A stretch of DNA of 64,000 nt. Origin: an uncultured Gammaproteobacteria bacterium. GTDB lineage: Bacteria; Patescibacteriota; Microgenomatia; Levybacterales; UBA12049. The notes below the pieces were generated by a model. It was not told where the DNA came from. It did not search any database and saw only the letters and a program-made list of their open reading frames with translations. This document shows positions 1 through 27,777 of this stretch, piece after piece; position 1 is the stretch's first letter, and each line of letters begins with the position of its first letter. Location of the stretch: NCBI GenBank assembly GCA_964610465.1, contig CAZSWA010000005.1, positions 8,456-72,455 of the forward strand, written 5' to 3'. Both the position numbers and the translations under genes were made by a program.

Positions 1-10
1 AAGTTTGGCT

Positions 11-703
11 ATGAATCAATCAGAGAAAGAAGCATATATGCAGTTGCATGACTCTCTTATGCAAGCTGGCCAACAAGGAGACCAAATTGCTTCGTCAATT
101 CTTTCTGTCACCGATAAAACTTCGATTACTGATATTACAAAGATAGAAGAGCAATTAAGAGAAGCAAAAGAAAAAGGTAATTCCAATGTGCAGGCAGTAC
201 TTGCTCAAACTGAAAGAAAAAAACCACTTAATCTTCCTAATTCCAACAGAATTCAAACAGTAAGCCTTGAGGATTATGAAGCAGTACGTAAAATGTGGGA
301 AGAAAATTATAAAACAGTTCCAGTTCCAGAAGGATGGAGTAATGATAAGAATGGAAGAAAAAGTTGGCTTAAGAAAGAAATTGAGAATATTATGGAAATA
401 ATTAACTTACTTATGTCCAGCGACCCGGAACAACAGGAAGAAGGTTTACGACGTGTACAACGTGTTTTGCCTTTCCTTATGCTTGGAGGTTTTTCAATTG
501 ATGAAATTGTTTCTTACCTGAAGTCAAAAATGGAAGCAGCTAAAGCAGTACTTACCATGCTTGAAGGAGAAGATAGCTCTGATGAAATGGTAGATGAGAA
601 AAATCATTCAGAAGTACCAAATACTATGACAATGTCCCAGGAAGTACCGGATACTACGTTACCTGAAAATACTATTTTGAACAAAAATGAGAATGAAAAA
701 TAA
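11..703 (+). CDS. Hypothetical protein with an N-terminal ~60-aa repeat domain (LHDxLMQ..QQG..IA..IL..T..T.D.D....QLEEAKE.G) shared with the C-terminus of the downstream Clp ATPase. The frame is open to the window edge, so the gene may be 5'-truncated; the ORF track starts at a TTG at 5 and the first ATG is at 11.
   Basis: Long ORF. Internal similarity to two repeats in ORF 753..4130 can be read directly from the translations. No recognisable catalytic motif. Confidence 0.5.
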   Translation: MNQSEKEAYMQLHDSLMQAGQQGDQIASSILSVTDKTSITDITKIEEQLREAKEKGNSNVQAVLAQTERKKPLNLPNSNRIQTVSLEDYEAVRKMWEENYKTVPVPEGWSNDKNGRKSWLKKEIENIMEIINLLMSSDPEQQEEGLRRVQRVLPFLMLGGFSIDEIVSYLKSKMEAAKAVLTMLEGEDSSDEMVDEKNHSEVPNTMTMSQEVPDTTLPENTILNKNENEK

Positions 704-752
704 ATAGATATTGATGTTTCCTGTTTTTTAGTATTTAATAAATAATGAGTCT

Positions 753-3700
753 ATGTTAGGTAGCCTATTTAATCAAAAGAAAAATCCTTCACAACCGCAA
801 GGGGACACGCAACAAATGTCTCCTAATGGGCAACCATATGGACAAAATTCTCAACAATTTGAGAACAATCAATATGCAAATCAGCAATATCAAAATCAAC
901 AGTACCCAAATCAACCGTATCCAAACCAAAACCCACAATATATGCCACAACAAATGCAACCAATGCCAATGCAACAGCAGTCTATGCCAGGGAATAATCC
1001 TCAGACAAATGTAATTAGCTCAAGAATGAACCCTGTGATGCGGCAGAATTTATCTGCATTATCTCATCTTGATACACGTACTACTCAGGCACTTACTCAT
1101 GCACAGGAGGAGACAAGAAGAATTCGTCAGCAATTTATTGAACCTGAACAGCTTTTGTATGGATTATTGTATGATCAGCAAGTATTCAAACTTCTTGAAG
1201 ATTTTAATGTCGATGTGGCCAAACTTTCAAAAGAACTCCAAACCAAAGAGAGAATTGGAACCTTTATGGGGCAGCCGACTCTTAGCAAGACATCACAAGA
1301 AGTATTTGAACAAGCATACAGAGATACTAAAATGAGAGGACAAAGTTTTGTTGTTCCTGAGGATGTATTAGTAACTCTTTTTAACATTAATTTGACTACG
1401 GCAAGTTATCTTCAAGCACAAGGAGTGAAAAAAGAGCAAGTAGTTGAAAAACTTTCCAAAACAATATCTGCGACATACGGCAAAAAAAGCGCACTTGATA
1501 AATATGGTACTGATCTTACAGAACAGGCACGTCAAGGGAAACTTGATCCAGTTGCAGGACGGGATAAAGAACTTGATAGATTGATTCATATTTTACTTCG
1601 TAGAACTAAAAATAATCCTATTATTATAGGGGAGCCGGGAGTTGGGAAAACTGCAATAGTTGAAGGACTTGCAGAAAAGATAGTTTCAGGAAGTGTCCCA
1701 AAGGAGCTTCAGGATAAAAGAATTTTTCAGCTGGATATTTCTGCATTAGTTGCAGGAGCAAGCCATAGAGGTGAGTTTGAAGAGAGACTGAAAGAAGTAA
1801 TTACTGATACACTGGCATCAGCAGGGCACACGATTCTTTTTATTGATGAGATACATACAATTATTGGTACAGGTGACAATGAAGGCTCACTTGACGCATC
1901 AAATATTATAAAACCATATTTAGCCCGGGGACAATTGCAAATTATTGGTGCTACTACAACAACAGAATTTAGAAAGAAATTTGAGAAGGATAAAGCATTT
2001 GAGAGACGTTTCCAGTCAGTACAAGCTGATGAACCGAGTGAAGAGAGCGCAATTGAGATGCTGAAAATTTTAAAACCAAAATATGAAATATTTCATAAAG
2101 TAACTTTTCCAGATGATACCTTAGAGGCAGCAGTAAAACTTTCCAAAAAATATGTCGGAGAGAGATTTTTGCCAGATAAAGCAGTAGATCTTCTTGATGA
2201 AGCAGCATCAGAAGTAAAGCTACAAATCGCAGCTGGAAAACGGCAGGATAACGTAGTGAAAAAAACAGATATCGAAACAGTAGTTAGTACCTGGACTGGA
2301 ATTCCAATTACCAAGTTGACAGAGGATGAAAGTGAAAAGCTCTTACGTCTTGAAGAGCGTATTCACAAACGTCTTGTCGATCAGGAAGAAGCATGCGTTG
2401 CAGTGGCAGAAGCAGTAAGAAGAGGACGTATTGGGCTTGCCAGTGCCAATAGGCCAATTGCTTCTTTTGTGTTCTTAGGTCCGACAGGTGTGGGGAAAAC
2501 AGAACTTGCCAAGACGCTTGCTGAAATACTTTTTGGGAGAGATGATGCAATGGTGAGACTTGATATGAGTGAGTACATGGAGAAACATGAAGTGGCAAAA
2601 CTTATTGGAGCGCCTCCTGGATATGTGGGGTATGAAGAAGGAGGACAATTAACAGAGGCTGTACGGAAAAAACCCTATTCTATTGTACTACTTGATGAAA
2701 TAGAAAAAGCCCACCCTGATGTATTTAATCTTTTGTTGCAGTTATTAGAGGATGGGAGACTGACTGATAATAAAGGGAATACTATCTCGTTTAAAAATAC
2801 TATTGTAATTTGTACTTCTAATATCGGAAGTGCACTTATCCAACAAAGATTAAGCCTTGAAGATCCAAAAATCAAGAAAACTCCTGAGGAATATAATAAA
2901 ACTTTTAAAGAGCTTAACGATGTAGTCAAAGAAGAACTTATCAAATTTTTCAGACCAGAGCTTCTTAATCGTTTTGATGAGGTAGTTATTTTTAAACCTC
3001 TACGGCTTGAACATATGTATGGTATTGCCAAGTTTAGTATCAAAAAAACTGCAGGACTTCTTAAAGAACAAGGGTTTGATTTACAAATTACCGATAAAGC
3101 AATTGAAAAGTTGGCAAAAGATGGCTATGACCCTGTATATGGAGCACGTCCTTTACGTCGTCTTGTGCAAACTGCAGTAGAAAATCCTATCGCCCTTGAA
3201 ATTATTTCCAAGAAATTCGCAGTGGGTGATACTATTGTTATAGATTACGACGAGAATACCAACCAATTTATATTTTCAAAGCCCAACGAAGGGAAAGTAG
3301 CAGCAACAGAAAAATATGATGCACTCGTATATCGCACTGCATTCCGGAGAATAGCAAGTCCTATGGATGTGCAAAATCCAGCTGAGCACAAAATGCTCAC
3401 TGAGCTTCATGATAAACTTATGGCACAAAGTCAACAAAATAATCAAATTGCAGCAGCTATCCTTGCAATTACAGAGATGACCTCAGATGGTGATGTATTG
3501 CGGATGAAACAACAGCTTGAGCAAACAAAAGAACAAGGTGACCCGTTGGCAACAGAAATTCTTCAAACAGTTGAGCAAACAATCATCATGGAAGAATTGT
3601 GGAATCTCAAAGTAGTACTTATGCAGATGATAAATCCTTTGACTGTCTCGAAAGAAAATAAAGAAACGTACACAAAACTACATGATACCGTATTACAGTT

Positions 3701-4130
3701 GAGCCAACAAGGGAATCCACTTGCAGGCGTATTACTTGCTATCAATGAAACAACTCCAGATGCAGATTTACAAAATATAAAACAGCAATTAGAGGAAGCA
3801 AAAGATCAAGGAGATACTACTGCTATTACAATTTTAACTTTAGCAAATCCTTTCCATGATCCAAACGTCAAAGTATCACAACAAGAACAAGCTTCACAAA
3901 ATAATCAAAATCCCCAACCAGTACCACAACAAATGCAACCAATGCCTTCTGACCAAACATATCCTTTTGGTTTGGGTCAGCAAGATGCAAATGCTCCTGA
4001 AACGCCATCTCAAGGTGATATAAGACAACAAATGCCTTTTGATGAAAATAATCAGACAAACCAGCCAATACAAAATGGTATGGCAAATATTTCCTCTTCA
4101 AATGGTATGATGCAATCGGGAAATAATTAG
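753..4130 (+). CDS. Clp/Hsp100-family AAA+ unfoldase with two NBDs. NBD2 is ClpB-like ([11 protein letters not shown]). The M-domain is deleted and there is no ClpP-binding [ILV]G[FL] loop. It has an N-terminal Q/N/Y/P-rich prion-like region, a Clp_N-like region, and a C-terminal extension with two ~60-aa repeats and a Q/N-rich tail. Most pipelines would annotate it as ClpC/ClpB.
   Basis: NBD1 Walker A GEPGVGKT and Walker [13 protein letters not shown]2 Walker A GPTGVGKT, Walker [11 protein letters not shown] and sensor-2 GARPLRR. Only ~14 aa lie between [11 protein letters not shown] and TWTGIP, where ClpB carries the ~120-aa M-domain. N-terminus: [33 protein letters not shown]. Confidence 0.85.
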
Positions 4131-4152
4131 TACTGATTGTATATGATGGTAA

Positions 4153-4181
4153 TTGACACATATTCTTTTTTCTACTAATGT
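4153..4181 (+). promoter_or_regulatory. Sigma70-like promoter candidate TTGACA-N17-TAATGT immediately upstream of the subtilisin gene. The ATG lies ~10 nt after the -10 box, so the mRNA would be near-leaderless.
   Basis: TTGACA at 4153-4158, 17-nt spacer, TAATGT at 4176-4181. Read directly from the sequence. Confidence 0.4.
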
Positions 4182-4190
4182 AGAAAGAGA

Positions 4191-5924
4191 ATGGAAGAGG
4201 TGAAAGAGAAAACAACTCCAGCGGAAAAATTCTTTTGGCTGTATTTTAAAAATAATAGAAAAGAAATTTCTCTAGGTGTTTTACTTCTATTTATATTGCT
4301 GTTTTTCATTCTTATCTTTTTTAGTAGAATACATAAGAAATCAACAAGTATTCCTGCACAACCAATACCAACACCTGCACAGACTTCAGAGAAAGTGCCA
4401 GGACAAATTTTGGTTAAATTCAAACGTGCAGTACCCGAGGCAGTTATAGCAGAACACTTACAAGTATATAACGCATCTGTTTCAGGAACGATTAAGGATA
4501 TTGGAGTAAGTATAGTACAGGTACCAAAAGGGCAAGAAGATGCTATACTTACTGCGCTTTCACATGATGCAATTGTTCAATATGTGGAAGCGGATTATTA
4601 TTCCCATGCATTCGCATTTCCAAATGATCCCTATTTCTCAAATCAGTGGGGACTTCATAATACTGCACAAGCCATACAAGGAAAAACAGGAGCATCAAAT
4701 GATGACATTCATGCAGTTGATGCATGGAATGTGACACAAGGTGATGGAATAAAAGTTGCGATTCTTGATACAGGTATTAATCAAAATCATCCTGACTTAG
4801 CATCAAAAATTGTACTACAAAAAATATTTTATACGAATTCTCTTGAAGATAACTTTGGACATGGAACGCATGTTGCCGGTATTATCTCAGCAGTAACCAA
4901 TAATTCTCAAGGAGTTGCAGGTGTTTGTCCAAATTGCCAGCTTATGATTGGGAGAGTATTGGATGATAATGGTAGCGGGCCAACTTCAAATATCGCCACA
5001 GGAGTAACATGGGCTGCAGACAATGGCGCCAAAGTCATCAATATTAGTGCTGGAGATACTGTTTTTGTACAAGCACTTGCAGATGCAATAACATATGCGT
5101 GGAATAAAGGCGTAGTAATTACCGCTGCAGCAGGTAATTCGAACACAACACAAAAATTTTATCCTGCTGCCTATCCTAATGTGATAGCAGTTGCCGCAAC
5201 CGATAATAATGATACAAAAGCGTCTTTTTCAAACTATGGAAGTTGGGTATTAGTAGCTGCTCCTGGAAGTAATATCTTTTCAACTCTTCCTGATCATACA
5301 TATAATATGCAAAAAATGAGCACTCTCAATTTAAATTATGATTATCTTTCTGGTACTTCAATGGCAAGTCCATTTGTTGCAGGTGCTGCTGCATTAGTTT
5401 GGGCATCGCCGTATGGCACATCAAATACAGCAGTCGTACAAAGACTTGAGAATACCGCAGATAAGATAACAGGAACTGGTACCTACTGGAAATATGGACG
5501 AATAAATGTGGCAAATGCAGTAGGTTTTAGTGTAACTACACCAACTGTACAGCCTTTAACTCCACCAACGTCTACTCCTACTCAACAACCAAAACAAACA
5601 ATTGCACCAACTATTCCTCATGTAACACCAACTCCTACCTTGCCTTTTGCAACTCCTACTTTTTATTGCGCTGGGGGAGTAAATTGCCTACCATCAACTA
5701 TTCCATCTCCTACTGTTCCAGTTATCCAAAATACTCCTCGCCCAACTCAAGTTTTTCAAAACGGAACTCCTACTTCAGTGATTACATTTGGAGTACCTAC
5801 TAATGTTCCAGGTATTTTAGGAGGAAGAAATCATGGTGGAAACAATAATAACTTCCAGCGACTTCGAAACTTTCTTATGCAGCTTGTTAAGCTACTCTTA
5901 AAAATGCTTTTTCCATTCTTCTAA
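4191..5924 (+). CDS. Subtilisin-like serine protease (peptidase S8) with an N-terminal TM anchor, an I9-like propeptide and a C-terminal P/T-rich region.
   Basis: Catalytic triad motifs: D (ILDTGI), H (HGTHVAGII), S (GTSMASPFVAGAAALV). Hydrophobic helix LGVLLLFILLFFILIFF near the N-terminus. P/T-rich linker TPPTSTPTQQPKQTIAPTIP. Confidence 0.85.
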   Translation: MEEVKEKTTPAEKFFWLYFKNNRKEISLGVLLLFILLFFILIFFSRIHKKSTSIPAQPIPTPAQTSEKVPGQILVKFKRAVPEAVIAEHLQVYNASVSGTIKDIGVSIVQVPKGQEDAILTALSHDAIVQYVEADYYSHAFAFPNDPYFSNQWGLHNTAQAIQGKTGASNDDIHAVDAWNVTQGDGIKVAILDTGINQNHPDLASKIVLQKIFYTNSLEDNFGHGTHVAGIISAVTNNSQGVAGVCPNCQLMIGRVLDDNGSGPTSNIATGVTWAADNGAKVINISAGDTVFVQALADAITYAWNKGVVITAAAGNSNTTQKFYPAAYPNVIAVAATDNNDTKASFSNYGSWVLVAAPGSNIFSTLPDHTYNMQKMSTLNLNYDYLSGTSMASPFVAGAAALVWASPYGTSNTAVVQRLENTADKITGTGTYWKYGRINVANAVGFSVTTPTVQPLTPPTSTPTQQPKQTIAPTIPHVTPTPTLPFATPTFYCAGGVNCLPSTIPSPTVPVIQNTPRPTQVFQNGTPTSVITFGVPTNVPGILGGRNHGGNNNNFQRLRNFLMQLVKLLLKMLFPFF

Positions 5925-5987
5925 GAACAACCTTATTTGTAATTTATATTTAAACTTTCTATACTAAAACTATACTCAAAAAAAATT

Positions 5988-6326
5988 ATGAGAGAATATA
6001 TGTTACTTCCTGGAGCATTTTTAAAATTTTGGTTTATTGAAGCGCCTTTGATAATGATAAAGTTTTTCGTATCTCTTAATCAAGCATTTTTCCAATTATT
6101 TTCCTTGTCATTATTTTTAAAAACTTTTTTTAAACCTCTTAAGAATGAATATCGGCCTGGTTTAGTACGGTTTTCAATTATCATGGGCATTGTAGTAAAA
6201 ACTGTATTTATTCTAGTTGACTTACTTTTATTTTCTTTATTACTTAGTGTTGAGCTAATAAGCCTCATTGTGTTTCTCATTTTCCCATTCGTATCTTTGA
6301 TTTTATTGATAATGCCAAACATATGA
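5988..6326 (+). CDS. Small, very hydrophobic predicted membrane protein. It could be an independent gene or the frameshifted N-terminal part of the downstream Clp paralogue.
   Basis: ORF of 112 aa made almost entirely of hydrophobic stretches (LIVFLIFPFVSLILLIM). It ends 4 nt into the next ORF, in a different frame. Confidence 0.3.
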   Translation: MREYMLLPGAFLKFWFIEAPLIMIKFFVSLNQAFFQLFSLSLFLKTFFKPLKNEYRPGLVRFSIIMGIVVKTVFILVDLLLFSLLLSVELISLIVFLIFPFVSLILLIMPNI

Positions 6327-8719
6327 TCACGTATGCCAGACTCTATCATTTCTACCGCACTGCAACACTCCGCAGTATAAGGCTATTAGTATTCTTTCTT
6401 TTACTTTTTGTAATAGTCAATGTAATATCAAGAGGTTTATTTCCTCGGTTTCCTCTTTTTTTGTTAAACCTTTTTATTATGAGTGAAATTTTTTTTCGTT
6501 TTAAAATCGCGCGAACTACACCATATATAAAAGTAACTGCGAATAAAGGAGAAAATCCGCTCATTTCTTTTAGTATGAATGCTCTTTATACGTACTTAGT
6601 GAATCAAAAGTCGTCATCCATTATTGCAAAGCTTATGAGTAATTCTCAAGTTCGTGCAATATTTGAGAAAGCAAATATTCAGGAGAAAGAGTTGTCTCTT
6701 CTTGACTATGAAAAAAATCTACTGGCAAAGACGGCATTTGATGTGGCAAGAAATAGAAATGGCCAATTTGTAACTACAATGGATTTGATAACTGCGTATC
6801 TTCTTGATACAGAAGGACAAACAAAACTACTCTTTAATAAGAAACTCAAGTCAGAAGAATTATATGCTATTTTGCATTGGGCAAGCAAGAATTTTCCTGA
6901 TGAAGAAATGCCCAAGCAGATAGCAATCCATTTATATGGTTCAGGAATTGGTGAATTTCTCACCACCGGATGGACTCCTGAAACAGAGAAATATACTCGT
7001 GAAGCAATATCAGGAGAAAAACCTCTTCTTATTGGCCGTGAAGGAGAATTTAAATCTCTTACTGATACATTATTGAAACCTGAAAACAACAATGTGTTAT
7101 TAGTAGGTGAACAAGGAGTTGGAAAAGAGACACTTGTACAAGCGCTTGCATATTATAGCATTGATAATGCTCTCTCTGCAAAATTAAATGATAAAAAAAT
7201 ACTCGAATTTCTCGTTGGACCATTTATTGCAGGCGCAAAGGAGAGAGGCGAATTGGAAGAACGATTACAGGCAATACTTGCTGAGCTTTCTCATTCAGGA
7301 CAGGTCATTATCTATATTCCTGAATTTCAAAATATTATTGGTGCATCGTCTTACAATCTTGATATTTCAGGAGCACTGCTTCCTTATCTTCATGATGGCA
7401 ATGTGCTTATTATTGCTACTATGACAAACGGGAATTACAAGAATTACATGGAGAAAAATCCCTTAAAGGAAGTATTTGGCATAATTGAATTGAGAGAACC
7501 TGATACACATACTGCATTACAAATGGTGTTTGAAAAAGCATCTGAGATAGAAAAGAAAACAGGTGTTATCCTGAGTTATCGCGCACTCGTTGCTGCAGTT
7601 GAATTTGCCAACCGCTACTTTCAGGATACTGTACTTCCAGGCAGTGCAATCTCACTTCTTGAAGATGTAGCAGCTAGTACTGCAGTATCAGGCAGCAGTC
7701 AGTATGGGAGTTCTCATCGAAAAATCGTTTTGGAGGAAGATGTCACTCGTAAAATAGAAGAGAAAATGCATGTCGCTATTTCAGCTCCTACTGGACAGGA
7801 AAAAGACTTACTCCTTCATCTAGAAGACAAATTACATGAACGGGTTATTGATCAAGTGGATGCAATTACTGCAATAGCAGAAGCAATGCGAAGAGTACGT
7901 TCCGGTATGATAACCTCAACACGGCCCATTTCATTTCTTTTCTTAGGTCCAACAGGTGTTGGGAAAACTGAAACTGCAAAGGCTTTGGCTGATTTATATT
8001 ATGGAGGAGAAAAAAATATGCTACGGCTTGATATGAGTGAATATGGAGACGAAGAGGGAGTAAAAAGACTTTTGGGTGCTGCACCTGGTGAAGGACGAGA
8101 ACGGGGAGAATTAACCGACAAAATTGCTGATAATCCTTCTTCTTTGGTGCTTCTTGATGAATTTGAAAAAGCACACCCTAAGATACTTGATCTTTTTTTA
8201 CAAGTTCTAGAAGATGGAAGACTTACTGATAATAAAGGACGAACAGTATCATTTATCAATACTATTATTATTGCAACATCCAATGCTGGAGCAGAATTCA
8301 TAAGAGAAGAAATCGAGAAGGGAACGCCAATTGATAAAAATTTCCAGCATAGGCTTTTTGAATATATACAATCCAAACTTATCTTCAAACCTGAACTTCT
8401 CAATAGATTTGATGATGTAGTTACTTTCAAGCCCTTGGGTGAAACAGAAGTCACACAAATAGTAAAACTTATGCTCAATAGCATCAGTAAAGCATTATAT
8501 GAACAGGATATTGATGTCGTATTTACTGACAAAGTTATTGCCAAAATTGCCAAAGAAGGATCTGATAAGGAATTTGGCGCTCGACCTCTTAGGCGTTATA
8601 TTCAGGATACAATCGAAGACGTATTGGCAAAGAAGAAACTTGCAGAAGAAATAAAGAGAGGAAACAGAGTATCTCTGACAACTGATGAAAATAATAACTT
8701 ACAGGTAGTTATTAGCTAA
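6323..8719 (+). CDS. Second Clp/Hsp100-family ATPase paralogue with a hydrophobic, possibly membrane-anchoring N-terminus and a Clp_N-like region. NBD1 is degenerate: Walker A is GEQGVGKET and the Walker B DE is replaced (IIYIPEF). NBD2 is intact. There is no M-domain and no ClpP loop.
   Basis: NBD2 Walker [17 protein letters not shown], Walker B LVLLDEFEKAHP, GARPLRR. The NBD1 motifs can be aligned by eye against ORF 753..4130 ([11 protein letters not shown] vs GEQGVGKETLV; ILFIDEIHT vs IIYIPEFQN). Confidence 0.8.
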   Translation: MITYARLYHFYRTATLRSIRLLVFFLLLFVIVNVISRGLFPRFPLFLLNLFIMSEIFFRFKIARTTPYIKVTANKGENPLISFSMNALYTYLVNQKSSSIIAKLMSNSQVRAIFEKANIQEKELSLLDYEKNLLAKTAFDVARNRNGQFVTTMDLITAYLLDTEGQTKLLFNKKLKSEELYAILHWASKNFPDEEMPKQIAIHLYGSGIGEFLTTGWTPETEKYTREAISGEKPLLIGREGEFKSLTDTLLKPENNNVLLVGEQGVGKETLVQALAYYSIDNALSAKLNDKKILEFLVGPFIAGAKERGELEERLQAILAELSHSGQVIIYIPEFQNIIGASSYNLDISGALLPYLHDGNVLIIATMTNGNYKNYMEKNPLKEVFGIIELREPDTHTALQMVFEKASEIEKKTGVILSYRALVAAVEFANRYFQDTVLPGSAISLLEDVAASTAVSGSSQYGSSHRKIVLEEDVTRKIEEKMHVAISAPTGQEKDLLLHLEDKLHERVIDQVDAITAIAEAMRRVRSGMITSTRPISFLFLGPTGVGKTETAKALADLYYGGEKNMLRLDMSEYGDEEGVKRLLGAAPGEGRERGELTDKIADNPSSLVLLDEFEKAHPKILDLFLQVLEDGRLTDNKGRTVSFINTIIIATSNAGAEFIREEIEKGTPIDKNFQHRLFEYIQSKLIFKPELLNRFDDVVTFKPLGETEVTQIVKLMLNSISKALYEQDIDVVFTDKVIAKIAKEGSDKEFGARPLRRYIQDTIEDVLAKKKLAEEIKRGNRVSLTTDENNNLQVVIS

Positions 8720-8769
8720 CGAAGAAATATTCCATCTACGAGCTATCTATGTTAGTCTATAAATAGGAT

Positions 8770-11700
8770 ATGAAAATAAGGAAAATTTTGCTTTTCATTA
8801 TCATAAGTTCTGTTCTCTTGTTTGTTTCAGAAATTTTTTCCCCTTCACAAGTAGTAGCACAAACGATAACCCCGACATCTACTTCCAGTTCAACATATAC
8901 TATAACAGGAAATTTTTTCTACGATACTAATGGAGATTTAAAGAAAGATAATGGAGAGGTGAATACGAACTATATAGATGTAGCCGGATGTAATAATGGA
9001 ACTCTTTCCTATACTACTCCAGGACAATACAGGATAAGTATAATAGGCGGAGGAACGTGTACCATCAATTACGGAAGTATTACATCGCCACCTGCCGGGT
9101 ATCAGATTACTTATCCTTCCGGAAATCCTCATAGTTTTACGGTAACTATTGGTTCTACCTGTAACGTGGATGGAACAACAGGAGGAACATGTAGTGGAGG
9201 AAATATCAGTAATCTTAATATTCCTCTTGGTGCTACTGCTGCACCTACGCTAACACCTACTCCTACATCAGTTCCCGCTACCTATAAAATTTCAGGTACT
9301 GTATTTGTGGATGCAAATAATGATGGAAAATTGGATAATGGAGAAAGTCCCTACAAAGCAAGCACTATTACTATTTCTCTTTCCGGTCCTGTAAATACAT
9401 TTACTACGACCGCAAATGGTGCATATACCTTCTCAAATTTACCTATAGGAACCTATACGCTAACTATGACGGTACCGGCAGGATATAATACAACTTCTGT
9501 TAATCCAGCAACAGTAACGGTGAACGCTAATGCAACGCAAAATTTTGGAGTTAGTAGTAATGTATGTACTGCGGGTAGTGGAGCTTCCGAGGTTATGCTT
9601 ATGTTTGATCATTCACAAAGTATGGCAGATAAAGACCCTGCAACAGGCAATACTAAAATAAGTGAAGCAATAAAAGCAGCACAAACATTTCTTAATCTGC
9701 TCAATCAAAATAATCCTGGGGTAAAAGTAGGTCTTATTGAATTTGCTGCCGCAGATAACTACCCCAATCTTGCTGATACCTCGGTTGTTGTGCCTCTCAT
9801 TCAACTCTCGAGTAACTATTCAAATCTTTCTAATGCTGTGAATCAAATGAAGATTGCATCAACACAGGGTACCTGTTTTGACTGTGCGGTTGATCTTCTC
9901 AACAAAGAACTGAAAGCCAATAGCACTCCCTCTGCAAAACATTTAGCAATTCTTCTCACAGACGGGAAGGCGAATGAAGATATTGCAAATGGTACCAATA
10001 ATGTCGATCCTACCACTGCAGAAAACGCTGCTATGAATTTAGTCAATTATGGTGATAATAATTTAAACATAGATTATTATACTGTTGGGGTTGGGAATGG
10101 GAATAATATCGACCCTGCATTTCTTCAGCAGATTGCAAACTCAACCGGTGGTCAATACTTTAACGATCCAACCAATGGTGATTTAACTTCTATTTACACA
10201 CAAATTGCCGGTAAACTAAATACTGCAGCAATTAAAGGTATGGTATATAAAGATGCCAATAATGATGGCAAGTACGACACAGGTGATACTCCACTGCAAG
10301 GATGGACAGTGCAAAATACTGGACCTTCAGGTAAGCAAACAGCAACAAGTGATAACAATGGCAAATTTTCATTTGGCAATCTCTGTATTGGACAATATAC
10401 TACTCAGGAGACTCTTCAGTCCGGGTGGATACAAACCCAACCGCAAAATCCCAATTTCTGGACTACGCTAGTAACGAGCGGAAATTCATTTAATAATATC
10501 AATTTTGGAAATTTACAAGGATATACTGTTTTAGGAAGTGTATTTGTAGATGTAAATAAAAATACTACTAAAGATAGTGGAGAACCAAATTACACAGGAT
10601 TACCTATACAGATTAACACGAGTGCTCCAGGAGCAACTGTGAGTTACCCAAGTCCTGGTACATTTAAAATAAGCGGAATAACTACAATTAGTGCACCAAT
10701 TAGTGTACAGTTTACAAACGCTTCTACAATACTGAATACAGGGTACCAAATGATTTACCCGTTAGGTACGCCTCCAGCTTTTTCTGTTACTGTAGGTCCG
10801 TCATGTAATATCAAGAGTGTATCAAACGGAGCACAATGTGACGCATCAGGCAATATCTCAAATCTCAATTTTGCTATCAGTAATTCATATCCTTGGATGC
10901 AATCTTCTGATTTAAATATCCGTGATGATTTCGGATTTAGTGACAATATCTCTTCTACTTCTTTGTGCACCGATTATACCTCAAAACCTGATGCATCATC
11001 AGCGAATCCCGGATATCCAGGAATAATTTTTTCTGGGCAAGTAAATGCGTTCTTCTGGCAGGGCAAGGCATCAAAAAAAAATTGGATAGTGGGAAGTTCA
11101 CTTTACCCTGAGGTATTCCAGAGTAGCAGTAATTTAAAAACAGAATACGATTATTTGCTCTCTACTATTAAGAATTCTGGAGCAACTATTACTGATTTTA
11201 CTGCGATTACTGATGCAAGTGGGAATCATACATGTAATAATCTTTCGAATTGTTCATTACCACCTAATCTGGCTCCAGGAGTGTATCAGGCATCAGGAGA
11301 TGTAATACTTACCGGGAGTGGGAGTCCTGTAGCCTATACGTTTTCTGCCAATAACGGACACTATATATTTCTCGTCAATGGAAACATAACGATAAAGGAA
11401 CGAATTGTTACCCCCAATGGGACCAATGCAATATTTTCATCGGCTGGTAATATTATCATTGATAAAACAGTTGGTGCTTCAAGTTTAACTTGCAATGATT
11501 CTCCGGGAGAAATTCAAGGAATTTATAGTGCTGATAACCAATTTATTGTCGATGGCTATCATGATTGTGTTACTCCTCAAGTTGATAGTATATTGACGAT
11601 TGAAGGAACAGTTATTGCCAACGCTGCAAGACAAAATACCCAAGAATCATTCATCTTTAACAATAGAGACTTGTGTGGTAATGACCCAAGTTATCCTGTT

Positions 11701-11790
11701 GTTTTCTTACGAGCTCGTCCTGACTTTATTCTTTCTGCACCTGATGTGGTAAAACAAAATACATTTGTTACACAAGAAGCCTTGCCATAG
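8770..11790 (+). CDS. Large secreted surface protein (~1000 aa). It has a signal peptide, three SdrD-B/Cna-B-like repeat units and a von Willebrand factor A domain with a MIDAS motif.
   Basis: N-terminus MKIRKILLFIIISSVLLFVSEIFSPSQVVAQ. Repeats GTVFVDANNDGKLDNGE, GMVYKDANNDGKYDTGD and GSVFVDVNKNTTKDSGE. vWA DxSxS motif (MFDHSQSM) and LLTDGKANED. Confidence 0.75.
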   Translation: MKIRKILLFIIISSVLLFVSEIFSPSQVVAQTITPTSTSSSTYTITGNFFYDTNGDLKKDNGEVNTNYIDVAGCNNGTLSYTTPGQYRISIIGGGTCTINYGSITSPPAGYQITYPSGNPHSFTVTIGSTCNVDGTTGGTCSGGNISNLNIPLGATAAPTLTPTPTSVPATYKISGTVFVDANNDGKLDNGESPYKASTITISLSGPVNTFTTTANGAYTFSNLPIGTYTLTMTVPAGYNTTSVNPATVTVNANATQNFGVSSNVCTAGSGASEVMLMFDHSQSMADKDPATGNTKISEAIKAAQTFLNLLNQNNPGVKVGLIEFAAADNYPNLADTSVVVPLIQLSSNYSNLSNAVNQMKIASTQGTCFDCAVDLLNKELKANSTPSAKHLAILLTDGKANEDIANGTNNVDPTTAENAAMNLVNYGDNNLNIDYYTVGVGNGNNIDPAFLQQIANSTGGQYFNDPTNGDLTSIYTQIAGKLNTAAIKGMVYKDANNDGKYDTGDTPLQGWTVQNTGPSGKQTATSDNNGKFSFGNLCIGQYTTQETLQSGWIQTQPQNPNFWTTLVTSGNSFNNINFGNLQGYTVLGSVFVDVNKNTTKDSGEPNYTGLPIQINTSAPGATVSYPSPGTFKISGITTISAPISVQFTNASTILNTGYQMIYPLGTPPAFSVTVGPSCNIKSVSNGAQCDASGNISNLNFAISNSYPWMQSSDLNIRDDFGFSDNISSTSLCTDYTSKPDASSANPGYPGIIFSGQVNAFFWQGKASKKNWIVGSSLYPEVFQSSSNLKTEYDYLLSTIKNSGATITDFTAITDASGNHTCNNLSNCSLPPNLAPGVYQASGDVILTGSGSPVAYTFSANNGHYIFLVNGNITIKERIVTPNGTNAIFSSAGNIIIDKTVGASSLTCNDSPGEIQGIYSADNQFIVDGYHDCVTPQVDSILTIEGTVIANAARQNTQESFIFNNRDLCGNDPSYPVVFLRARPDFILSAPDVVKQNTFVTQEALP

Positions 11791-11858: not shown

Positions 11859-12875
11859 ATGCCAGCGATACAAAGAAGCGAATTTGCATTAGCATTAAAT
11901 CAAGTTGCCTCAGAACGTGGAGTTGATGTAAATGTTGTGCTTGATACAGTAAAAAATGCTATTTTGGCAGCCTACAGAAAGGACCATCCTGGAATTGAAG
12001 TTACCGAATACACAGCAGAACTTAATCCCAATACCGGTGAAGCACGAATTCTTCATAATAGTGAAGATGTTACTCCCCCTGGATTTGGAAGAATTGCAGC
12101 TCAAACTGCAAAGCAGGTAATTCTTCAAAAGATACGAGAGAAAGAAAAGGAAGCAATTTTATCAGATTATAAAGTACGAATTGGGACAGTAGTGAATGGA
12201 ATGGTTCTCAGATTTGCAGGGCCAAATATCATTGTTGATATTGGGAAAACAGAGGCAATCATGCCTCCATCAGAACAAATTCCAAGTGAAAAGTATCATC
12301 TCAATCAACGTCTTTCATTTTATCTTCTTGATATTCGGGAAGGACTCAAAGGTGAGGAGGTTATCGTATCAAGAAGCCATAATGGTCTTATTGAAGGGCT
12401 TTTCAAAAGAGAAGTACCGGAAGTTTCTCAGGGCAGTGTAGAAATTAAAAACGTAGTTCGGGAAGCAGGAAATCGATCAAAAGTTGCAGTCTTTTCAAAA
12501 CAGCCTGGTATTGATCCTGTTGGGTCATGCGTTGGACAAAAAGGCGTACGTGTACAAGCAATCATTCAAGAATTAAATGGTGAAAAAATCGATATTATCC
12601 AATGGTCAGATGATGCCAAAACCTATATTGCTCAGGCACTTTCTCCTGCCAAAGATGTACAGGTAGAAGTAGATGAAGATGAAAAAACTGCTCATGTAAT
12701 GGTACCCAAAGAAGAATTATCTCTGGCAATAGGAAAAGATGGACAAAATGTACGCTTGGCATCAAAACTCACTGGCTTCAGGATTGAAATTGAAGGAAAA
12801 GGCGGCAGTGAAGTTAATGAACCATCGCATGAAGAAGCGAAAAGTACAGAACCTGTAGAAACACACCCGGCATAG
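11859..12875 (+). CDS. nusA: Transcription termination/antitermination factor NusA (N-terminal domain, S1, KH1 and KH2).
   Basis: The N-terminus (FALALNQVASERGVDVNVVLDTVKNAILAAYRK) is typical of NusA. KH region GSCVGQKGVRVQAIIQELNGEKIDII. Followed directly by infB in conserved synteny. Confidence 0.9.
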   Translation: MPAIQRSEFALALNQVASERGVDVNVVLDTVKNAILAAYRKDHPGIEVTEYTAELNPNTGEARILHNSEDVTPPGFGRIAAQTAKQVILQKIREKEKEAILSDYKVRIGTVVNGMVLRFAGPNIIVDIGKTEAIMPPSEQIPSEKYHLNQRLSFYLLDIREGLKGEEVIVSRSHNGLIEGLFKREVPEVSQGSVEIKNVVREAGNRSKVAVFSKQPGIDPVGSCVGQKGVRVQAIIQELNGEKIDIIQWSDDAKTYIAQALSPAKDVQVEVDEDEKTAHVMVPKEELSLAIGKDGQNVRLASKLTGFRIEIEGKGGSEVNEPSHEEAKSTEPVETHPA

Positions 12876-12920
12876 TATGAAGCAAGGAGTACTTTTAGAT
12901 ACAAGTGAAGAAGCAAAAGT

Positions 12921-14411
12921 ATGGATAGCAAGAAAAAGATTACTCACAATGAATCAGTTACCTCATTTCCTCCAGTAGTTGCAGTACTTGGTCATGTTGA
13001 CCATGGCAAAACCACCTTACTTGATGCAATACGCAAATCTTCAATCGCACAAAGAGAAATTGGAGGAATTACTCAAAAAATCGGCGCATCATCAATTGAA
13101 ATAATCCATGAAGGTAAAAAGAGAACAATCACATTTATTGACACTCCAGGTCATGAAGCGTTTTCAAAAATGAGAGGAAGAGGTGCCCAAGCAGCAGATG
13201 TCGCACTTCTTATTGTTTCTGTAACTGATGGAGTAATGCCGCAAACCAGAGAAAGTATTGAAATTCTTAGAGAAACAGAGACTCCTTTTATTGTAGTACT
13301 TACCAAAATCGACCTCCCAACCAAAAATCCTGATAAAGTAAAACACGATTTGCTCAAAGAACAGGTTATGCTTGAAGGTTATGGTGGAGAAGTGCCAGTC
13401 ATTGAAGTTTCTGCAAAAACCAATCAGAATGTAAAGGAGCTTTTGGATTTGATTCTTCTTATGTATGATTTTCGTAAAACGCCTGAATATGAAAAAGAAA
13501 TAACAAGCGATGCGTCTTTTCGTGCAGTCGTGATAGAGTCAAAAATGGATAAAAAAACCGGTCCTCTCGCCACAGTTGTGATAAAAAATGGAACAGTTCA
13601 TCTTCGTGATGAACTCCTGGTAGATAAGCAACTATTTAAAGTAAGAGCACTCATCACTACTCAAAACATACAAGTTCAGAAGGCAACTGTTGGTGAAGCA
13701 ATTGAAGTGTTGGGTTTTACAACGGTTCCCGCTGTTGGCAGTATTGTTTCATCCACGGCAAATGCATTACCTCTTGTACAAAACAACTTGCCGGCAACTA
13801 CAAAACAACTCAAAAGAGAACTCATCTATAAAAGAGATGAGACTAAATCCGGGATTTCCGCAATCCTTGTTGCTGATACCCAAGGATCACTCGAGGCAAT
13901 TATGAATGCACTTCCAAAAGATGTTGAGCTTCTTCTTTACAAAACAGGAGAGGTTACAGAAGCAGATATTCTGCTTGCGAAATCCACTGGCTCAATAGTG
14001 CTGAGTTTCAATACTAAAATCCGGCCGGAAGTCCAGAAGCTCGCAATTACTGAGAAAGTCCTTTTCCGCAATTATCAAATCATCTATGAGTTACTTGATG
14101 AGGTACAGGATGCCTTAGAAGGTAAGAAACTTGCTGAGATGGAGCAAGTCTTTGGCAAAGCCAAAGTTTTGGCCAAATTTCCCTTTGAGAAGACCAATGT
14201 ATTTGGCATATCAGTTTCAGACGGGCGTATCGCGCGTGGAGATAGGGTAAGGATTCTAAGAGGTGAGATTCTCATCGGAGAAAGCTCAATCTCATCCCTT
14301 AGAGTTGGGAAAAATCCTACTTCAAAAGTCGAAAAAGGACACGAAGCAGGCATACTTTTGTCTCCTTATCTTGACATACAAGTAGGGGATGTTATAATAC
14401 CCCATAGTTGA
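12921..14411 (+). CDS. infB: Translation initiation factor IF-2, a short form lacking the long N-terminal region.
   Basis: G-domain VVAVLGHVDHGKTTLLDAIRK and DTPGHEAF. nusA-infB synteny. 496 aa. Confidence 0.9.
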   Translation: MDSKKKITHNESVTSFPPVVAVLGHVDHGKTTLLDAIRKSSIAQREIGGITQKIGASSIEIIHEGKKRTITFIDTPGHEAFSKMRGRGAQAADVALLIVSVTDGVMPQTRESIEILRETETPFIVVLTKIDLPTKNPDKVKHDLLKEQVMLEGYGGEVPVIEVSAKTNQNVKELLDLILLMYDFRKTPEYEKEITSDASFRAVVIESKMDKKTGPLATVVIKNGTVHLRDELLVDKQLFKVRALITTQNIQVQKATVGEAIEVLGFTTVPAVGSIVSSTANALPLVQNNLPATTKQLKRELIYKRDETKSGISAILVADTQGSLEAIMNALPKDVELLLYKTGEVTEADILLAKSTGSIVLSFNTKIRPEVQKLAITEKVLFRNYQIIYELLDEVQDALEGKKLAEMEQVFGKAKVLAKFPFEKTNVFGISVSDGRIARGDRVRILRGEILIGESSISSLRVGKNPTSKVEKGHEAGILLSPYLDIQVGDVIIPHS

Positions 14412-15388: not shown

Positions 15389-15440
15389 TCACAGTAGAGT
15401 ACTCTTGTGAATCTCCTTTTCGCATGATATAATACAGTTT

Positions 15441-15710
15441 ATGCCATTATCAACTACACAAAAGCAGGAAATTATAAAAGAATATCAAACCACAGACGGC
15501 GATACAGGAAGTCCTGAAGTGCAAATTGCTCTTTTGTCAAAAAGAATTGAGCGACTTGCAGGGCACTTAAAAGAGCACGATCATGATGTACACAGCAGAC
15601 GAGGTCTTCTTTCAATGATTGCCAAAAGACGACGCTTGATAAACTTTCTTAAAAAAGTTGATGAAACTAGAGTCCGTTCCATCTTAAAAAAAATTGGACT
15701 TTCGGATTAA
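15441..15710 (+). CDS. rpsO: 30S ribosomal protein S15
   Basis: Full-length match to the S15 consensus ([39 protein letters not shown]). rpsO-pnp synteny. Confidence 0.9.
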
Positions 15711-15714
15711 TTAA

Positions 15715-17985: not shown

Positions 17986-18161
17986 TTTAAAATTAAGAAG
18001 CATCCCACAGGCCTCTGCGAGGGATCTTCGAAGAATCAAGAAATAAGGAAATAAAATCGTAAACCCCAAATACCAGGCTCTAAATAAATTCGAAATTACA
18101 AAAAACAAATATAAACTCCATCTCTCTTTTGTCTTTTTATAAAATCATGTAATATATTATT

Positions 18162-26946: not shown

Positions 26947-27777
26947 ATGATCATTCCTTATCAAGAAGAACAACGTCTTCAATTTTCAAGAGAATCACAA
27001 GTAAGACAAGAAACTGAACTAAAACTTTCTCCGCAAACCTTTTACGCACTTAGAATTCATACACCTCAACAGATAAACATTGCAGAGCAAGTATCATCAT
27101 GGCATAGTAGATATGGGTACGACTCACGAAATGTAGAACAAATAGATGAAAAGACGTGGAAAATATGGGAAACAACTAAAGTCGTGGATGCAAATGAGGA
27201 AGGGATAATCTTAGAGCAAATTGGTATTAATGGAGAAAGACAACCTCTTAGACGAATGACGATAGAAAATACTTCTTATATTCGAGGAGAACAAAATAAA
27301 AAAGGAACAGATTTAACAATTGTTTCAGAAAACGAAGATGCAACGTTCTCAACGGAATCCTTTTTCAGAAATATCTATTACCCTACAAGAAGAGCTGGGT
27401 TAGATATAGTGAGGAAAAGAAATCAGGGAGCATCCCTTCAAGCAATACATTTATATAATGTGCAAACAGGTGATGAGAGAGATATATACTTAGGTAGGAG
27501 ACTAAAACTTGGTACTAGCGCAAAAATATATCCAGGACTTCGTGTCCTTGACTACACTATCGAAGCGGACGTTGATGAATCTCCTTTAAAAATGACAACA
27601 CTTAGTGTTGACAAATTGTCACAATCGATAGTATTTTCTGCAGACTCAAGTACTTTGTTTACCCCAAGCACTGAAGCAGCAATTATAAATAGCGCGTTTG
27701 CATTAACTGATAAAGTATATAGAGGTGAAAGAGTAATTGCGCCTAGGGGAGAAATATTTAATCCTTCAAATAAATAA
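26947..27777 (+). CDS. Hypothetical protein
   Basis: 276-aa ORF in a coding-dense context. No recognisable motif. Confidence 0.4.
   Translation: MIIPYQEEQRLQFSRESQVRQETELKLSPQTFYALRIHTPQQINIAEQVSSWHSRYGYDSRNVEQIDEKTWKIWETTKVVDANEEGIILEQIGINGERQPLRRMTIENTSYIRGEQNKKGTDLTIVSENEDATFSTESFFRNIYYPTRRAGLDIVRKRNQGASLQAIHLYNVQTGDERDIYLGRRLKLGTSAKIYPGLRVLDYTIEADVDESPLKMTTLSVDKLSQSIVFSADSSTLFTPSTEAAIINSAFALTDKVYRGERVIAPRGEIFNPSNK

Follow-up and report, generated by a model that had tools for sequence, protein, structure and literature searches.

Two probable units, each built around an unusual Hsp100, on the chromosome backbone of Levybacteria

The proteins described here invite comparison with ClpB/Hsp104 (TIGR03346) and ClpA/ClpC, with the VirB6/TrbL proteins (PF04610), with torsins and with mycosins (TIGR03921). 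An aromatic pore-loop residue is needed for threading. VirB6 paralogues with giant C-terminal extensions are known from Rickettsiales (PMC7648143). In a survey of the T4SS in Patescibacteria, VirB6 homologues were found to be scarce in Microgenomatia, and Clp proteins are not mentioned there (PMC12102498). Torsins are membrane-associated AAA+ proteins related to Clp/Hsp100 (PMC5425593).

The window is the whole stretch of DNA that was analysed, 64,000 nucleotides in length. The locus belongs to a Levybacteria (CPR/Patescibacteria) chromosome backbone with the order hrcA-grpE-dnaK-dnaJ ... nusA-infB-pnp, the genes being identified by Pfam. The earlier note had described five consecutive genes of this locus as one functional unit. 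Most of its observations on the sequence hold, but the first gene had been taken for a small one and a sixth, p4 at 5988-6326, had been overlooked. The features are as follows.

1..703, + strand: p1, a large gene truncated at the window edge and represented by its 3' end (last 233 codons), with a frame open to base 2
about 23-199, + strand: repeat copy of p1, within the window
about 254-541, + strand: C-terminal module of p1, within the window
753..4130, + strand: p2, Hsp100 of 1125 aa (Pfam, PDB alignments, motif columns in 14 orthologues)
753-1067, + strand: Q/N-rich N-terminal tail of p2 (composition)
3387-3560 and 3657-3833, + strand: repeat copies of p2 (repeat search)
3870-4127, + strand: Q/N-rich C-terminal tail of p2 (composition)
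4153..4181, + strand: TTGACA-N17-TAATGT, a promoter-like site between p2 and p3, just ahead of p3 (a consensus match alone)
4191..5924, + strand: p3, membrane-anchored S8 subtilase of 577 aa (Pfam PF00082, 188.5 bits, and PF22148; TM scan)
5988..6326, + strand: p4, conserved membrane protein of 112 aa (ORF list; motif FFKPLKNEYRxGLVxFS)
6323..8719, + strand: p5, membrane-anchored Hsp100 paralogue of 798 aa (Pfam, PDB alignment, 20-sequence alignment)
8770..11790, + strand: p6, secreted mosaic surface protein of 1006 aa (Pfam; TM and signal scan)
11859..14411, + strand: nusA and infB, downstream anchor of the backbone, given as context and outside both units (Pfam)

As the earlier note stated, the consecutive genes are on one strand with short spacers (49, 60, 63 and 50 nt), and the block is not a canonical clpC operon: the window ORFs covered by the Pfam scan include no mcsA, mcsB, ctsR or clpP. 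Gene order was compared in 51 related loci, almost all from Levybacteria, and the accompanying neighbour-joining tree is a rough one. The proposal of a single five-gene unit failed in this comparison, which the earlier note had itself named as a means of refutation, with the complete set present in 0/51 loci. The p4 gene is directly upstream of p5 in 44/48 loci and p1 directly upstream of p2 in 18/18 evaluable loci, whereas a subtilase adjoins p4 in 3/45 evaluable loci and in L016, and a vWA gene comes immediately after p5 in 3/39. The nusA gene is downstream of p5 in 32/39 loci. We consider it likely that the block consists of two conserved units, each around an unusual Hsp100, together with two lineage-variable genes for exported proteins, and that it is not one module. 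Both units are conserved and undescribed; no description of either was found in the literature.

The single system proposed earlier, in which the Hsp100s of a block of five (now six) genes would feed or regulate a subtilase that matures the vWA protein, is very unlikely. It could explain the shared strand, the short spacers and the lack of terminator-like sites between the block genes on the + strand, and it agrees with the position of the subtilase in relatives (L012, L016, L024 and L039), which is always directly upstream of p4. However, the subtilase is found in about four loci and the vWA protein in about three, no other locus has both the p4-adjacent subtilase and a vWA gene directly after p5, and a promoter-like site precedes the subtilase. 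In addition, the predicted location of the subtilase catalytic domain and of the vWA protein is outside the cytoplasm, whereas the AAA+ rings are inside it. It is even harder to regard the block as an anti-phage defence system or mobile island of the AAA+/protease/vWA type, an extremely improbable reading. The PADLOC models DolB, PDC-M37B, subtilase and IetS do match p2, p5 and p3 at the domain level, but these are matches to generic AAA+ and S8 domains. The genes lie within a housekeeping backbone, dnaK ... nusA-infB-pnp, inherited vertically across the whole lineage, and the coarse composition profile has no marked shift.

The first unit includes p2, which is located downstream of hrcA-grpE-dnaK-dnaJ. 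This protein has a Clp_N domain, two intact NBDs with Walker A/B motifs and Arg fingers, a canonical GYVG pore loop in NBD2 and a D2-small domain, and its motifs are conserved in 14 orthologues. All these elements, as well as the location by dnaK-dnaJ, are shared with ClpB/Hsp104, and ClpB is the best-scoring family. However, the score of 895 bits is below the cut-off of 1232, and p2 also falls below the NCBIfam cut-offs for ClpA (741 against 993), ClpV, ClpK and ClpG. It further differs from ClpB/Hsp104 in its added low-complexity tails and C-terminal helical repeats and in pore loop 1, where SHR replaces KYR. This replacement of Tyr by His had been missed in the earlier note.

The earlier note held that p2 lacks both the M-domain and a ClpP-docking loop, and the alignments bear this out. 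The alignment with E. coli ClpB skips from residue 411 to 525, leaving only a linker of about ten residues, so that the ClpB-type docking site for DnaK is absent and control by DnaK in the ClpB manner is probably impossible. ClpA has no M-domain either, and at the ClpP-loop position the loop of p2 is similar in length to that of ClpC. However, the [LIV]-G-[FL] tripeptide occurs in 0/14 p2 orthologues, so that docking to ClpP is probably impossible as well. The p2 protein is probably a catalytically intact Hsp100 unfoldase that has lost both connections. Its tails had been called prion-like. Their Q/N richness is real, Q+N making up 40% of aa 1-105 and 36% of aa 1040-1125, but the label depends on a composition that is not kept in orthologues, where the content is 10-29%.

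The p1 protein, taken earlier for a small protein, is in fact much larger, and the window contains its final 233 residues. Extension with Logan contigs gives at least 402 aa, and the closest representative relative, P0123, has 1510 aa. The search gave 333 representative homologues with lengths of 700-2800 aa. The family layout consists of a signal peptide, a VirB6/TrbL-like domain of about five TM segments, 2-16 repeats of 59 aa and a conserved C-terminal module of about 100 aa. The membrane domain of the window protein itself lies outside the window and is attributed to it from relatives; in P0123 it is present with an hhalign probability of 100%. Pfam TrbL PF04610 matches 7/9 representatives of the family, two of them at or above the gathering score; the scores are borderline. 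When a model of the family was compared with the PDB by Foldseek, TrwI/VirB6 chains made up 7 of the top 10 matches, with probability up to 1.00, TM 0.45 and E=0.02 for the best, although the E-values against these chains (0.02-0.7) are weak; profile searches of PDB sequences with the family found nothing. The AF2 model of the 233 residues in the window is all-helical with a pLDDT of 80.7. These sequence and model comparisons allow p1 to be classed, as a borderline case, as a very divergent VirB6/TrbL-like protein.

The neighbourhood of p1 adds to this likeness. In 13/13 Levybacteria loci p1 is immediately preceded by a VirB2-like pilin gene, which lies just outside the window here, and the pilin-p1 pair is also found on contigs L058, L059 and L060 and on one JGI contig. 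The family model is nearest to R388 TrwI/VirB6, and the long repetitive C-terminal extension resembles that of Anaplasma VirB6-4. The differences from VirB6/TrbL are, besides the divergence of the domain, a tail repeat that is a family-specific 59-aa helical unit, an Hsp100 neighbour, and the lack of VirB4 or other T4SS genes in the loci whose gene calls were inspected. Because of this last difference, p1 may be a protein of the VirB6 fold with another role.

It is important to consider the repeat of about 59 aa that p1 shares with the C-terminus of p2, a link claimed in the earlier note that proved real and conserved (BLASTP E=2e-12 and 1e-11, 33-37% identity). The two copies in p2 span aa 879-936 and 969-1027. 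Among the genes examined at these loci, the repeat is restricted to p1 and p2. According to repeat HMM counts, it is present in the p2 of the window's clade and absent from deep-branching p2 orthologues. The p2 copies are positionally orthologous between genomes with 50-77% identity, compared with 25-45% to the p1 repeats of the same genome. Such a pattern suggests a single old acquisition, maintained by vertical descent and kept under selection.

The first unit would thus comprise the VirB2-like pilin, the VirB6/TrbL-like p1 and p2. A rough hydropathy count of five TM segments in the p1 family would place its long tail of helical repeats and conserved end module in the cytoplasm, and p2 in the window's clade appears to have gained a C-terminal array of p1-type repeats. 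From sequence and neighbourhood, we infer that the repeats may bring the p2 unfoldase to the membrane, to a platform of the VirB6-like type, and that it could unfold or extract proteins there. Since deep-branching p2 has no repeats, such a tether cannot underlie the p1-p2 partnership in general.

In fact, these repeat-free orthologues still occupy the same position, as would be expected if p2 were a stand-alone disaggregase, a streamlined substitute for ClpB in the heat-shock cluster that is next to p1 through inherited order and whose repeats and tails bind substrate or aggregates, or self-assemble, instead of tethering. The place of p2 downstream of hrcA-grpE-dnaK-dnaJ, its two intact ATPase sites and NBD2 pore loop, and the precedents of stand-alone disaggregases with extra domains (ClpG and ClpK models) are all consistent with this possibility. 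However, it leaves unexplained the constant adjacency of p1 at every evaluable locus, the Hsp100 gene downstream of the p1-family gene on L058 and L060 too, and a repeat that, among the genes examined, is confined to these two proteins and vertically kept in p2. Moreover, CIRCE elements are found upstream of hrcA only, with none before p1 or p2. We regard the stand-alone role as rather unlikely, and association of p2 with the p1 platform is preferred.

The second unit consists of p4 and p5. The small p4 protein has no match in Pfam, NCBIfam or PADLOC. Its stop codon overlaps the start of p5 as ATGA, and an overlap or near-abutment is seen at this junction in most loci. The p5 protein begins with a hydrophobic hairpin and has no M-domain. 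Its NBD1 is degenerate, with Walker A GVGKE (G.GKE in the family), Walker B IPEF (Y.P.F.N in the family), loss of the Arg fingers and a pore loop 1 without Tyr. In NBD2, Walker A/B, sensor 1, the Arg finger and sensor 2 are all intact, while the pore loop reads GA.PG.G.ERGE, again without Tyr. These features, including the degenerate motifs, are invariant in an alignment of 20 homologues. Full-length homologues are about 800 aa long with 55-62% identity. The hydrophobic N-terminus and the degenerate NBD1 had been recognized earlier, and both Hsp100s are truly atypical as stated then. The loss of the pore-loop Tyr in both rings of p5 had been missed.

The first ring of p5 would no longer hydrolyse ATP and the second looks active, with neither retaining the aromatic pore-loop residue. 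On the same grounds of sequence and gene order, we infer that p5, with p4 as its partner, may be a membrane-bound ATPase for non-threading remodelling or scaffolding, closer in action to a torsin than to ClpB. The Hsp100 origin, the N-terminal hydrophobic anchor, the lack of aromatic pore loops and the partner gene for a membrane protein are all torsin-like. However, p5 has retained two rings, of which one is dead, as well as an Arg finger of its own in NBD2, it is bacterial and faces the cytoplasm, and its partner is a tiny non-AAA+ protein. The resemblance would therefore concern the mode of action and not membership at the level of homology.

It might also be suggested that p5 joins p2 in mixed hexamers, as their membrane anchor or regulatory subunit, forming one machine with p4 as membrane receptor. 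The NBD2, D2-small domain and Arg finger relevant to oligomerisation are kept in p5 without the pore-loop tyrosines, and no more than 10 kb separates p2 from p5 in 19/33 loci. However, dnaJ and p4-p5 occur with no p2 within 8-10 kb upstream in at least 12 loci, and p5 is roughly 30-40% identical to Hsp100 NBDs. Such mixed hexamers are improbable, and two separate units are the preferred arrangement.

The remaining two genes appear to code for exported proteins and are located at variable junctions of the backbone in a few lineages. The TM-anchored subtilisin noted earlier is indeed p3, with a single N-terminal TM segment (aa 26-44), a fervidolysin-type propeptide, a catalytic domain with the D/H/S triad motifs AILDTG, HGTHVAG and GTSMASP, a Pro/Thr-rich linker and a hydrophobic C-terminal tail. 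Its best NCBIfam match is the T7SS mycosin, likewise a membrane-anchored S8 protease. However, the score of 234.9 bits is below the cut-off of 278.75, the anchor is N-terminal and no T7SS genes are present at the p3 locus. As judged by its occurrence, the subtilase is lineage-variable and no obligate partner of either unit, and its position upstream of p4 even in the distant lineage L039 may reflect a loose association with p4. The promoter-like site reported for one spacer is the single match in the window; since 5/100 shuffles also contain at least one match, it is weak evidence. If working, it could allow independent transcription of the subtilase.

The p6 protein agrees with the earlier description of a secreted vWA/SdrD_B protein of about 1000 aa. 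It contains in order a signal peptide, an SdrD_B domain, a vWA domain with the DxSxS MIDAS motif, a second SdrD_B domain and a separate C-terminal module of about 310 aa (aa 694-1006). By its distribution, p6 too is lineage-variable and no obligate partner of either unit: a full-length orthologue is found in L013 only, while L004 and L018 have partial orthologues, the C-terminal module being carried there by a different protein.

The region 1-11790 carries six genes on the + strand, not five. An earlier note had seen a row of five same-strand genes there and read it as one module; the common strand was confirmed, but a sixth gene, p4, had been overlooked.

Genes of the region 1-11790
2-703, + strand: p1, VirB6/TrbL-like repeat protein, open at the window edge
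753-4130, + strand: p2, first Hsp100, 1125 aa
4191-5924, + strand: p3, S8 subtilase, 577 aa
5988-6326, + strand: p4, small membrane protein, 112 aa
6323-8719, + strand: p5, second Hsp100 paralogue, 798 aa, its start overlapping the p4 stop as ATGA
8770-11790, + strand: p6, vWA/SdrD_B surface protein, 1006 aa

Downstream of p6 the window contains nusA, infB, a DHH-family gene and pnp, as identified by Pfam. The shortness of NusA and IF-2 and the names of the homologues assign the organism to Candidatus Levybacteria (CPR/Patescibacteria, Microgenomatia). The GC content is about 37% across the window, and an Rfam scan of the window found no RNA gene. No terminator-like site was found in the + strand spacers between the p1-p6 genes. 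The promoter-like TTGACA-N17-TAATGT reported earlier was located at 4153-4181, immediately 5' of the subtilase gene. A match of this kind appears at least once in 5 of 100 shuffles, and the site is therefore weak evidence.

The p5-specific alignment of the N-terminal half (A2) was scanned against one genome per GTDB species, which yielded 50 loci, almost all of them under the names Levybacteria or Levyibacteriota. A number of records are evidently mislabelled: L010, L017, L018, L021, L047, L031 and others bear the titles "uncultured Gammaproteobacteria", "Woesearchaeota", "Methylomirabilota" or "Acidiferrales", and their gene content disagrees. The loci were compared by BLASTP of six-frame ORFs with the window proteins and with HrcA, GrpE, DnaK and DnaJ, and the arrangements were counted on 51 non-redundant loci.

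Gene arrangements at the related loci
p4 immediately 5' of p5: 44/48 evaluable loci
p2 within 8-10 kb upstream of p4-p5: 19/33 loci
p1 immediately 5' of p2: 17/18 loci (the remaining one is a 4-nt overlap, effectively 18/18)
Subtilase gene adjoining p4: 3/45 loci, and L016
vWA gene immediately 3' of p5: 3/39 loci
nusA downstream: 32/39 loci
dnaJ within 10 kb upstream: 21/33 loci
dnaJ upstream, no p2 in the 8-10 kb before p4-p5: 12 loci
All five genes of the proposed module together: 0 of 51 loci

These counts and a rough neighbour-joining tree of p5 give the backbone order hrcA-grpE-dnaK-dnaJ-[pilin-p1-p2]-[variable]-p4-p5-[variable]-nusA-infB-DHH-rpsO-pnp, with two variable junctions. In the tree the repeat-bearing p2 is limited to one crown clade, the window included, and the vWA protein to one sub-clade and the window, while the subtilase is scattered. 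The synteny check in relatives thus gives the single module no support: the five-gene set is not conserved, but two sub-units are, namely pilin-p1-p2 (Unit A) and p4-p5 (Unit B). The subtilase and vWA genes appear to be independent, lineage-variable genes for exported proteins. A tidy row of genes on one strand can prove to be a mosaic of unrelated units. The block was also considered as an anti-phage defence island, and this was rejected because the PADLOC matches to its genes are at the generic level of AAA+ and S8 domains and the genes stand in a vertically inherited housekeeping backbone.

The main rival explanation for Unit A is that p2 is a plain stand-alone disaggregase and its neighbourhood an inherited gene order. 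The protein has the Pfam architecture Clp_N, AAA, AAA_lid_9, AAA_2 and ClpB_D2-small. Throughout 14 orthologues the Walker A and B motifs and the Arg fingers are intact and NBD2 keeps its GYVG loop; the M-domain is missing, and pore loop 1 reads SHR where KYR would be usual. Aligned with E. coli ClpB, p2 passes directly from ClpB residue 411 to 525 and thus skips residues 412-524, the whole M-domain. Its position is occupied only by a linker of about 10 residues in 13 of 14 p2 orthologues and by a low-complexity insert in L030. The earlier statement that this Hsp100 had lost both the M-domain and the ClpP loop is therefore supported, as no [LIV]-G-[FL] docking tripeptide was found in the NBD2 loop region of p2 and 13 orthologues. 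No clpP, mcsA, mcsB or ctsR was found among the Pfam-scanned ORFs of the window, a set without rpoB/rpoC and a few other large ORFs.

The score of p2 falls under the NCBIfam cut-offs for ClpB, ClpA, ClpV, ClpK and ClpG. The values are 895.2 bits for the ClpB equivalog TIGR03346 (cut-off 1232.1) and 673 bits for ClpV/TssH, TIGR03345 (cut-off 884.95); neither the window nor the loci showed T6SS genes. The tails had been called Sup35-like, and in the window protein the composition holds, with 40% Q+N at aa 1-105 and 36% at aa 1040-1125. It does not hold for the family: on the N-terminal and C-terminal 100 residues the Q+N fraction is 0.42 and 0.33 in the window p2 and 0.10-0.29 in 13 orthologues, which makes the window protein the extreme among them.

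The neighbouring p1 forms the tail end of a large membrane protein that shows features of VirB6, and its gene always follows one for a VirB2-like pilin. It had been taken for a small protein, which is incorrect: the frame is open to the first base of the window, and identical genes on Logan contigs lengthen it to at least 402 aa and show one more repeat copy. Only 2 matches came from a word-indexed search with the p1 fragment as query, so an exhaustive HMMER scan was needed, which yielded a family of 333 representative homologues of 700-2800 aa. The full-length homologues at the loci begin with a signal peptide; then come a polytopic membrane domain under strong conservation (alignment A3), a repeat array and a conserved end module of about 100 aa (alignment A4) with invariant Trp, Pro and Arg and an LPFLxxGGFS motif. 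The nearest homologue, P0123 (1510 aa, 62% identity), has the same membrane domain with an hhalign probability of 100%; an exact look-up of P0123 returned no contig.

The fragment of p1 in the window carries no membrane domain, and the comparison with VirB6 was made on its homologues. In 7 of 9 representatives the membrane domain is hit by PF04610 (TrbL/VirB6); two of these reach or just exceed the gathering score of 25.9 (P0193, 26.1; P0201, 26.6), and the others score 16.6-24.3; among the Levybacteria members 2 of 12 match, weakly. The AF2 model of P0201 has a pLDDT of roughly 70-96 in the membrane domain. In a Foldseek search of this model against the PDB, the R388 TrwI/VirB6 chains take ranks 1, 2, 5, 6, 7, 8 and 10 (7 of the top 10), with a probability up to 1.00 but weak E-values of 0.02-0.7 and a TM-score of about 0.45. 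The membrane-domain profiles A3 and A5 gave nothing meaningful against PDB sequences. By a rough hydropathy count, the signal peptide is followed by five TM segments, and the repeat tail of p1 would therefore be cytoplasmic.

A protein of about 100 aa with two TM segments, matching Pfam T4SS_pilin, lies directly 5' of p1 in 13 of 13 loci containing the p1 start and on four further contigs. In L058 the match to PF18895 scores 26.9 bits versus 26.6. The p1 family consistently adjoins an Hsp100 gene, not VirB4, and no VirB4 was seen in the loci with inspected gene calls. VirB6 paralogues with giant C-terminal extensions, with which the repeat tail of p1 may be compared, occur in Anaplasma (PMC7648143). 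A 2025 survey of Patescibacteria T4SS reported that VirB2-like pilin arrays are abundant and that few VirB6 homologues occur in Microgenomatia, a scarcity ascribed by its authors to extreme divergence; Clp proteins are unmentioned there (PMC12102498). The p1 family may be this missing, divergent VirB6. We found no description of a pilin-VirB6-Hsp100 cassette in the literature.

The repeat noticed earlier in both p1 and the C-terminus of the first Hsp100 was recovered by BLASTP (E=2e-12 and 1e-11, 33-37% identity). By a repeat HMM, each p1 contains 2-16 copies; the p2 of the crown clade carries 2-5 at its C-terminus, and the deep-branching p2 has none. The p2 copies are 50-77% identical to their positional orthologues between genomes and 25-45% identical to the p1 copies of the same genome. 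They are thus closer to their orthologues, which argues that the array was gained once and then kept. Gene conversion, or homogenisation of the p1 and p2 repeats by recombination, was rejected on the same low identity within genomes. The common repeats could tether p2 to the p1 platform, where p2 would unfold or extract proteins.

In some lineages an N-terminally anchored exported protein of about 460 aa, with no match among the window proteins, is encoded between the VirB6-like and Hsp100 genes (L039 3132..4511; L045 3580..4968; L046 3474..4862; L060 3283..4560). It was considered as the source of the p2 extension and dismissed, since it contains no repeats.

Unit B begins with p4, a membrane protein of about 110 aa with hydrophobic segments in the hydropathy scan and a motif, FFKPLKNEYRxGLVxFS, that hardly varies. 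Searches of Pfam, NCBIfam and PADLOC gave no match for p4. In most loci its stop overlaps or abuts the start of p5. Automatic callers begin p5 52 codons too late (746 aa; window 5988..6479), and at L001 6587..6856 the automatic call in place of p4 is an 89-aa ORF on the opposite strand. The conserved N-terminal hairpin of p5 and the p4 family indicate that these calls are wrong.

The homologues of p5 are full-length proteins of about 800 aa with 55-62% identity, and its Pfam domains are AAA_lid_9, AAA_2 and D2-small. The hydrophobic N-terminus and degenerate NBD1 that had been described for the second Hsp100 are invariant in 20 homologues, the hydrophobic hairpin being kept in 20 of 20. Throughout the 20 aligned sequences the NBD1 Walker A is G.GKE, with Glu for Thr, the Walker B is Y.P.F.N, with Pro for Asp, pore loop 1 (AGA.[NED]R) lacks Tyr, and the Arg fingers are absent. 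Judged by these motifs, NBD1 is dead. NBD2 retains GARP and further conserved motif letters (18 protein letters not shown), as well as an invariant N694-R695 motif, while its pore loop, GA.PG.G.ERGE, has no Tyr and is one or two residues shorter. The family also has its own GWTPET motif, no M-domain insert and, in the alignment, no ClpP-docking loop. The score of p5 against TIGR03346 (ClpB) is 462.1 bits, under the cut-off of 1232.1. The alignments indicate that the atypical features of both p2 and p5 are family characters under selection.

The closest comparison for p5 is with the torsins, which are Clp/Hsp100-related, membrane-associated and without aromatic pore loops (PMC5425593). Like them, p5 has a hydrophobic membrane anchor and no pore-loop aromatics; one of its two rings looks live. 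However, the torsins miss the Arg finger, which is supplied by a cofactor of AAA+ fold, whereas p5 has its own Arg finger in NBD2 and p4 has no AAA+ fold. For this reason p5 may be torsin-like in its mode of action at most, and not a member of the torsin family. A membrane-bound, non-threading ATPase formed by p4 and p5 would be consistent with these features. No description of a membrane-anchored Hsp100 without pore-loop tyrosines was found in the literature.

What remains of the proposed module is thus two uncharacterised, lineage-wide variants of known protein kinds, Units A and B, whose proposed mechanisms are of interest. In the most far-reaching proposal, p2 would be the dedicated cytoplasmic motor of a minimal apparatus with a VirB2 pilin and a VirB6 platform, and p4-p5 the first bacterial torsin-like, non-threading membrane Hsp100; we consider this whole rather improbable. 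Its scope would be the Levybacteria and some relatives without taxonomic placement. Here p2 would dock on the repeat tail of p1, extract and feed the pilin or unfold export cargo, and replace or supplement the VirB4 ATPase. If true, an AAA+ unfoldase would be paired with parts of type IV secretion in ultrasmall symbiotic bacteria, a combination not known before. The CPR/Patescibacteria make up a large part of bacterial diversity and are apparently epibionts, and the assembly of their surface and secretion machinery is little understood. With p2 lacking the M-domain and ClpP loop, and p5 anchored and lacking pore-loop aromatics, the two proteins challenge assumptions on how an Hsp100 is coupled to partners and substrates.

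The two variable genes encode the kinds of proteins that had been described. The subtilase p3 matches PF00082 (peptidase S8) with 188.5 bits versus 21.8, has a fervidolysin-type propeptide (Pfam) and the triad motifs AILDTG, HGTHVAG and GTSMASP, and is anchored by one TM segment at aa 26-44 in the hydropathy scan. Its top NCBIfam match is the T7SS mycosin TIGR03921, with 234.9 bits under the equivalog cut-off of 278.75. Relatives that have a subtilase carry it immediately 5' of p4 in every case, yet these are four lineages only.

The surface protein p6 has SdrD_B and VWA domains (PF00092, 59.9 bits versus 23.8), a MIDAS DxSxS present as DHSQS and a signal-like N-terminus in the hydropathy scan, in agreement with a secreted protein of about 1000 aa. 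The protein is built as a mosaic: aa 172-691 (SdrD_B-vWA-SdrD_B) correspond to the vWA proteins in L004 and L018, while aa 694-1006 (window 10849..11790) form a separate module of about 310 aa, which in these two loci matches the C-terminus of a different neighbouring CBM/Laminin_G protein. In L004 this is a CBM_4_9/DUF2341/Laminin_G_3 protein at 15397..18897, with 39% identity over 317 aa. A full-length orthologue of p6 was found in L013 only.

Neither the canonical CIRCE nor its local Levybacteria variant is present in the window. In the relatives a CIRCE-like TTAGCAGT-N11-ACTGCTAA lies 5' of hrcA in 13 loci, including L006 5136, L029 2702, L037 4003, L040 3608 and L041 4775, and was never found before p1, p2 or p4. 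Control of these three genes by HrcA could therefore not be shown. An additional copy of the variant stands in L006 at 20375, roughly 80 nt 5' of a mechanosensitive-channel gene.

Several other genes of the window deserve mention. At 18162..19289 (+), 3' of pnp, is a 375-aa AAA+ protein with a Lon lid and without the Lon protease domain; a similar gene is at the same place in a related Levybacteria chromosome (L003 21761..22409). For the ORFs at 21064..23085 (+, 673 aa) and 26947..27777 (+, 276 aa), Pfam gave no match at E <= 1e-5. At 30186..33333 (-) a sortase gene is followed by the gene of an 804-aa protein whose sole Pfam match is a weak Baseplate_J (25.9 bits), an odd pairing in a housekeeping region. 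Finally, in the 833-aa protein at 55734..58235 (+) a domain of the class-A beta-lactamase family is joined to LysM and DUF5667, a fusion that is unusual in a cell-wall-poor CPR organism.
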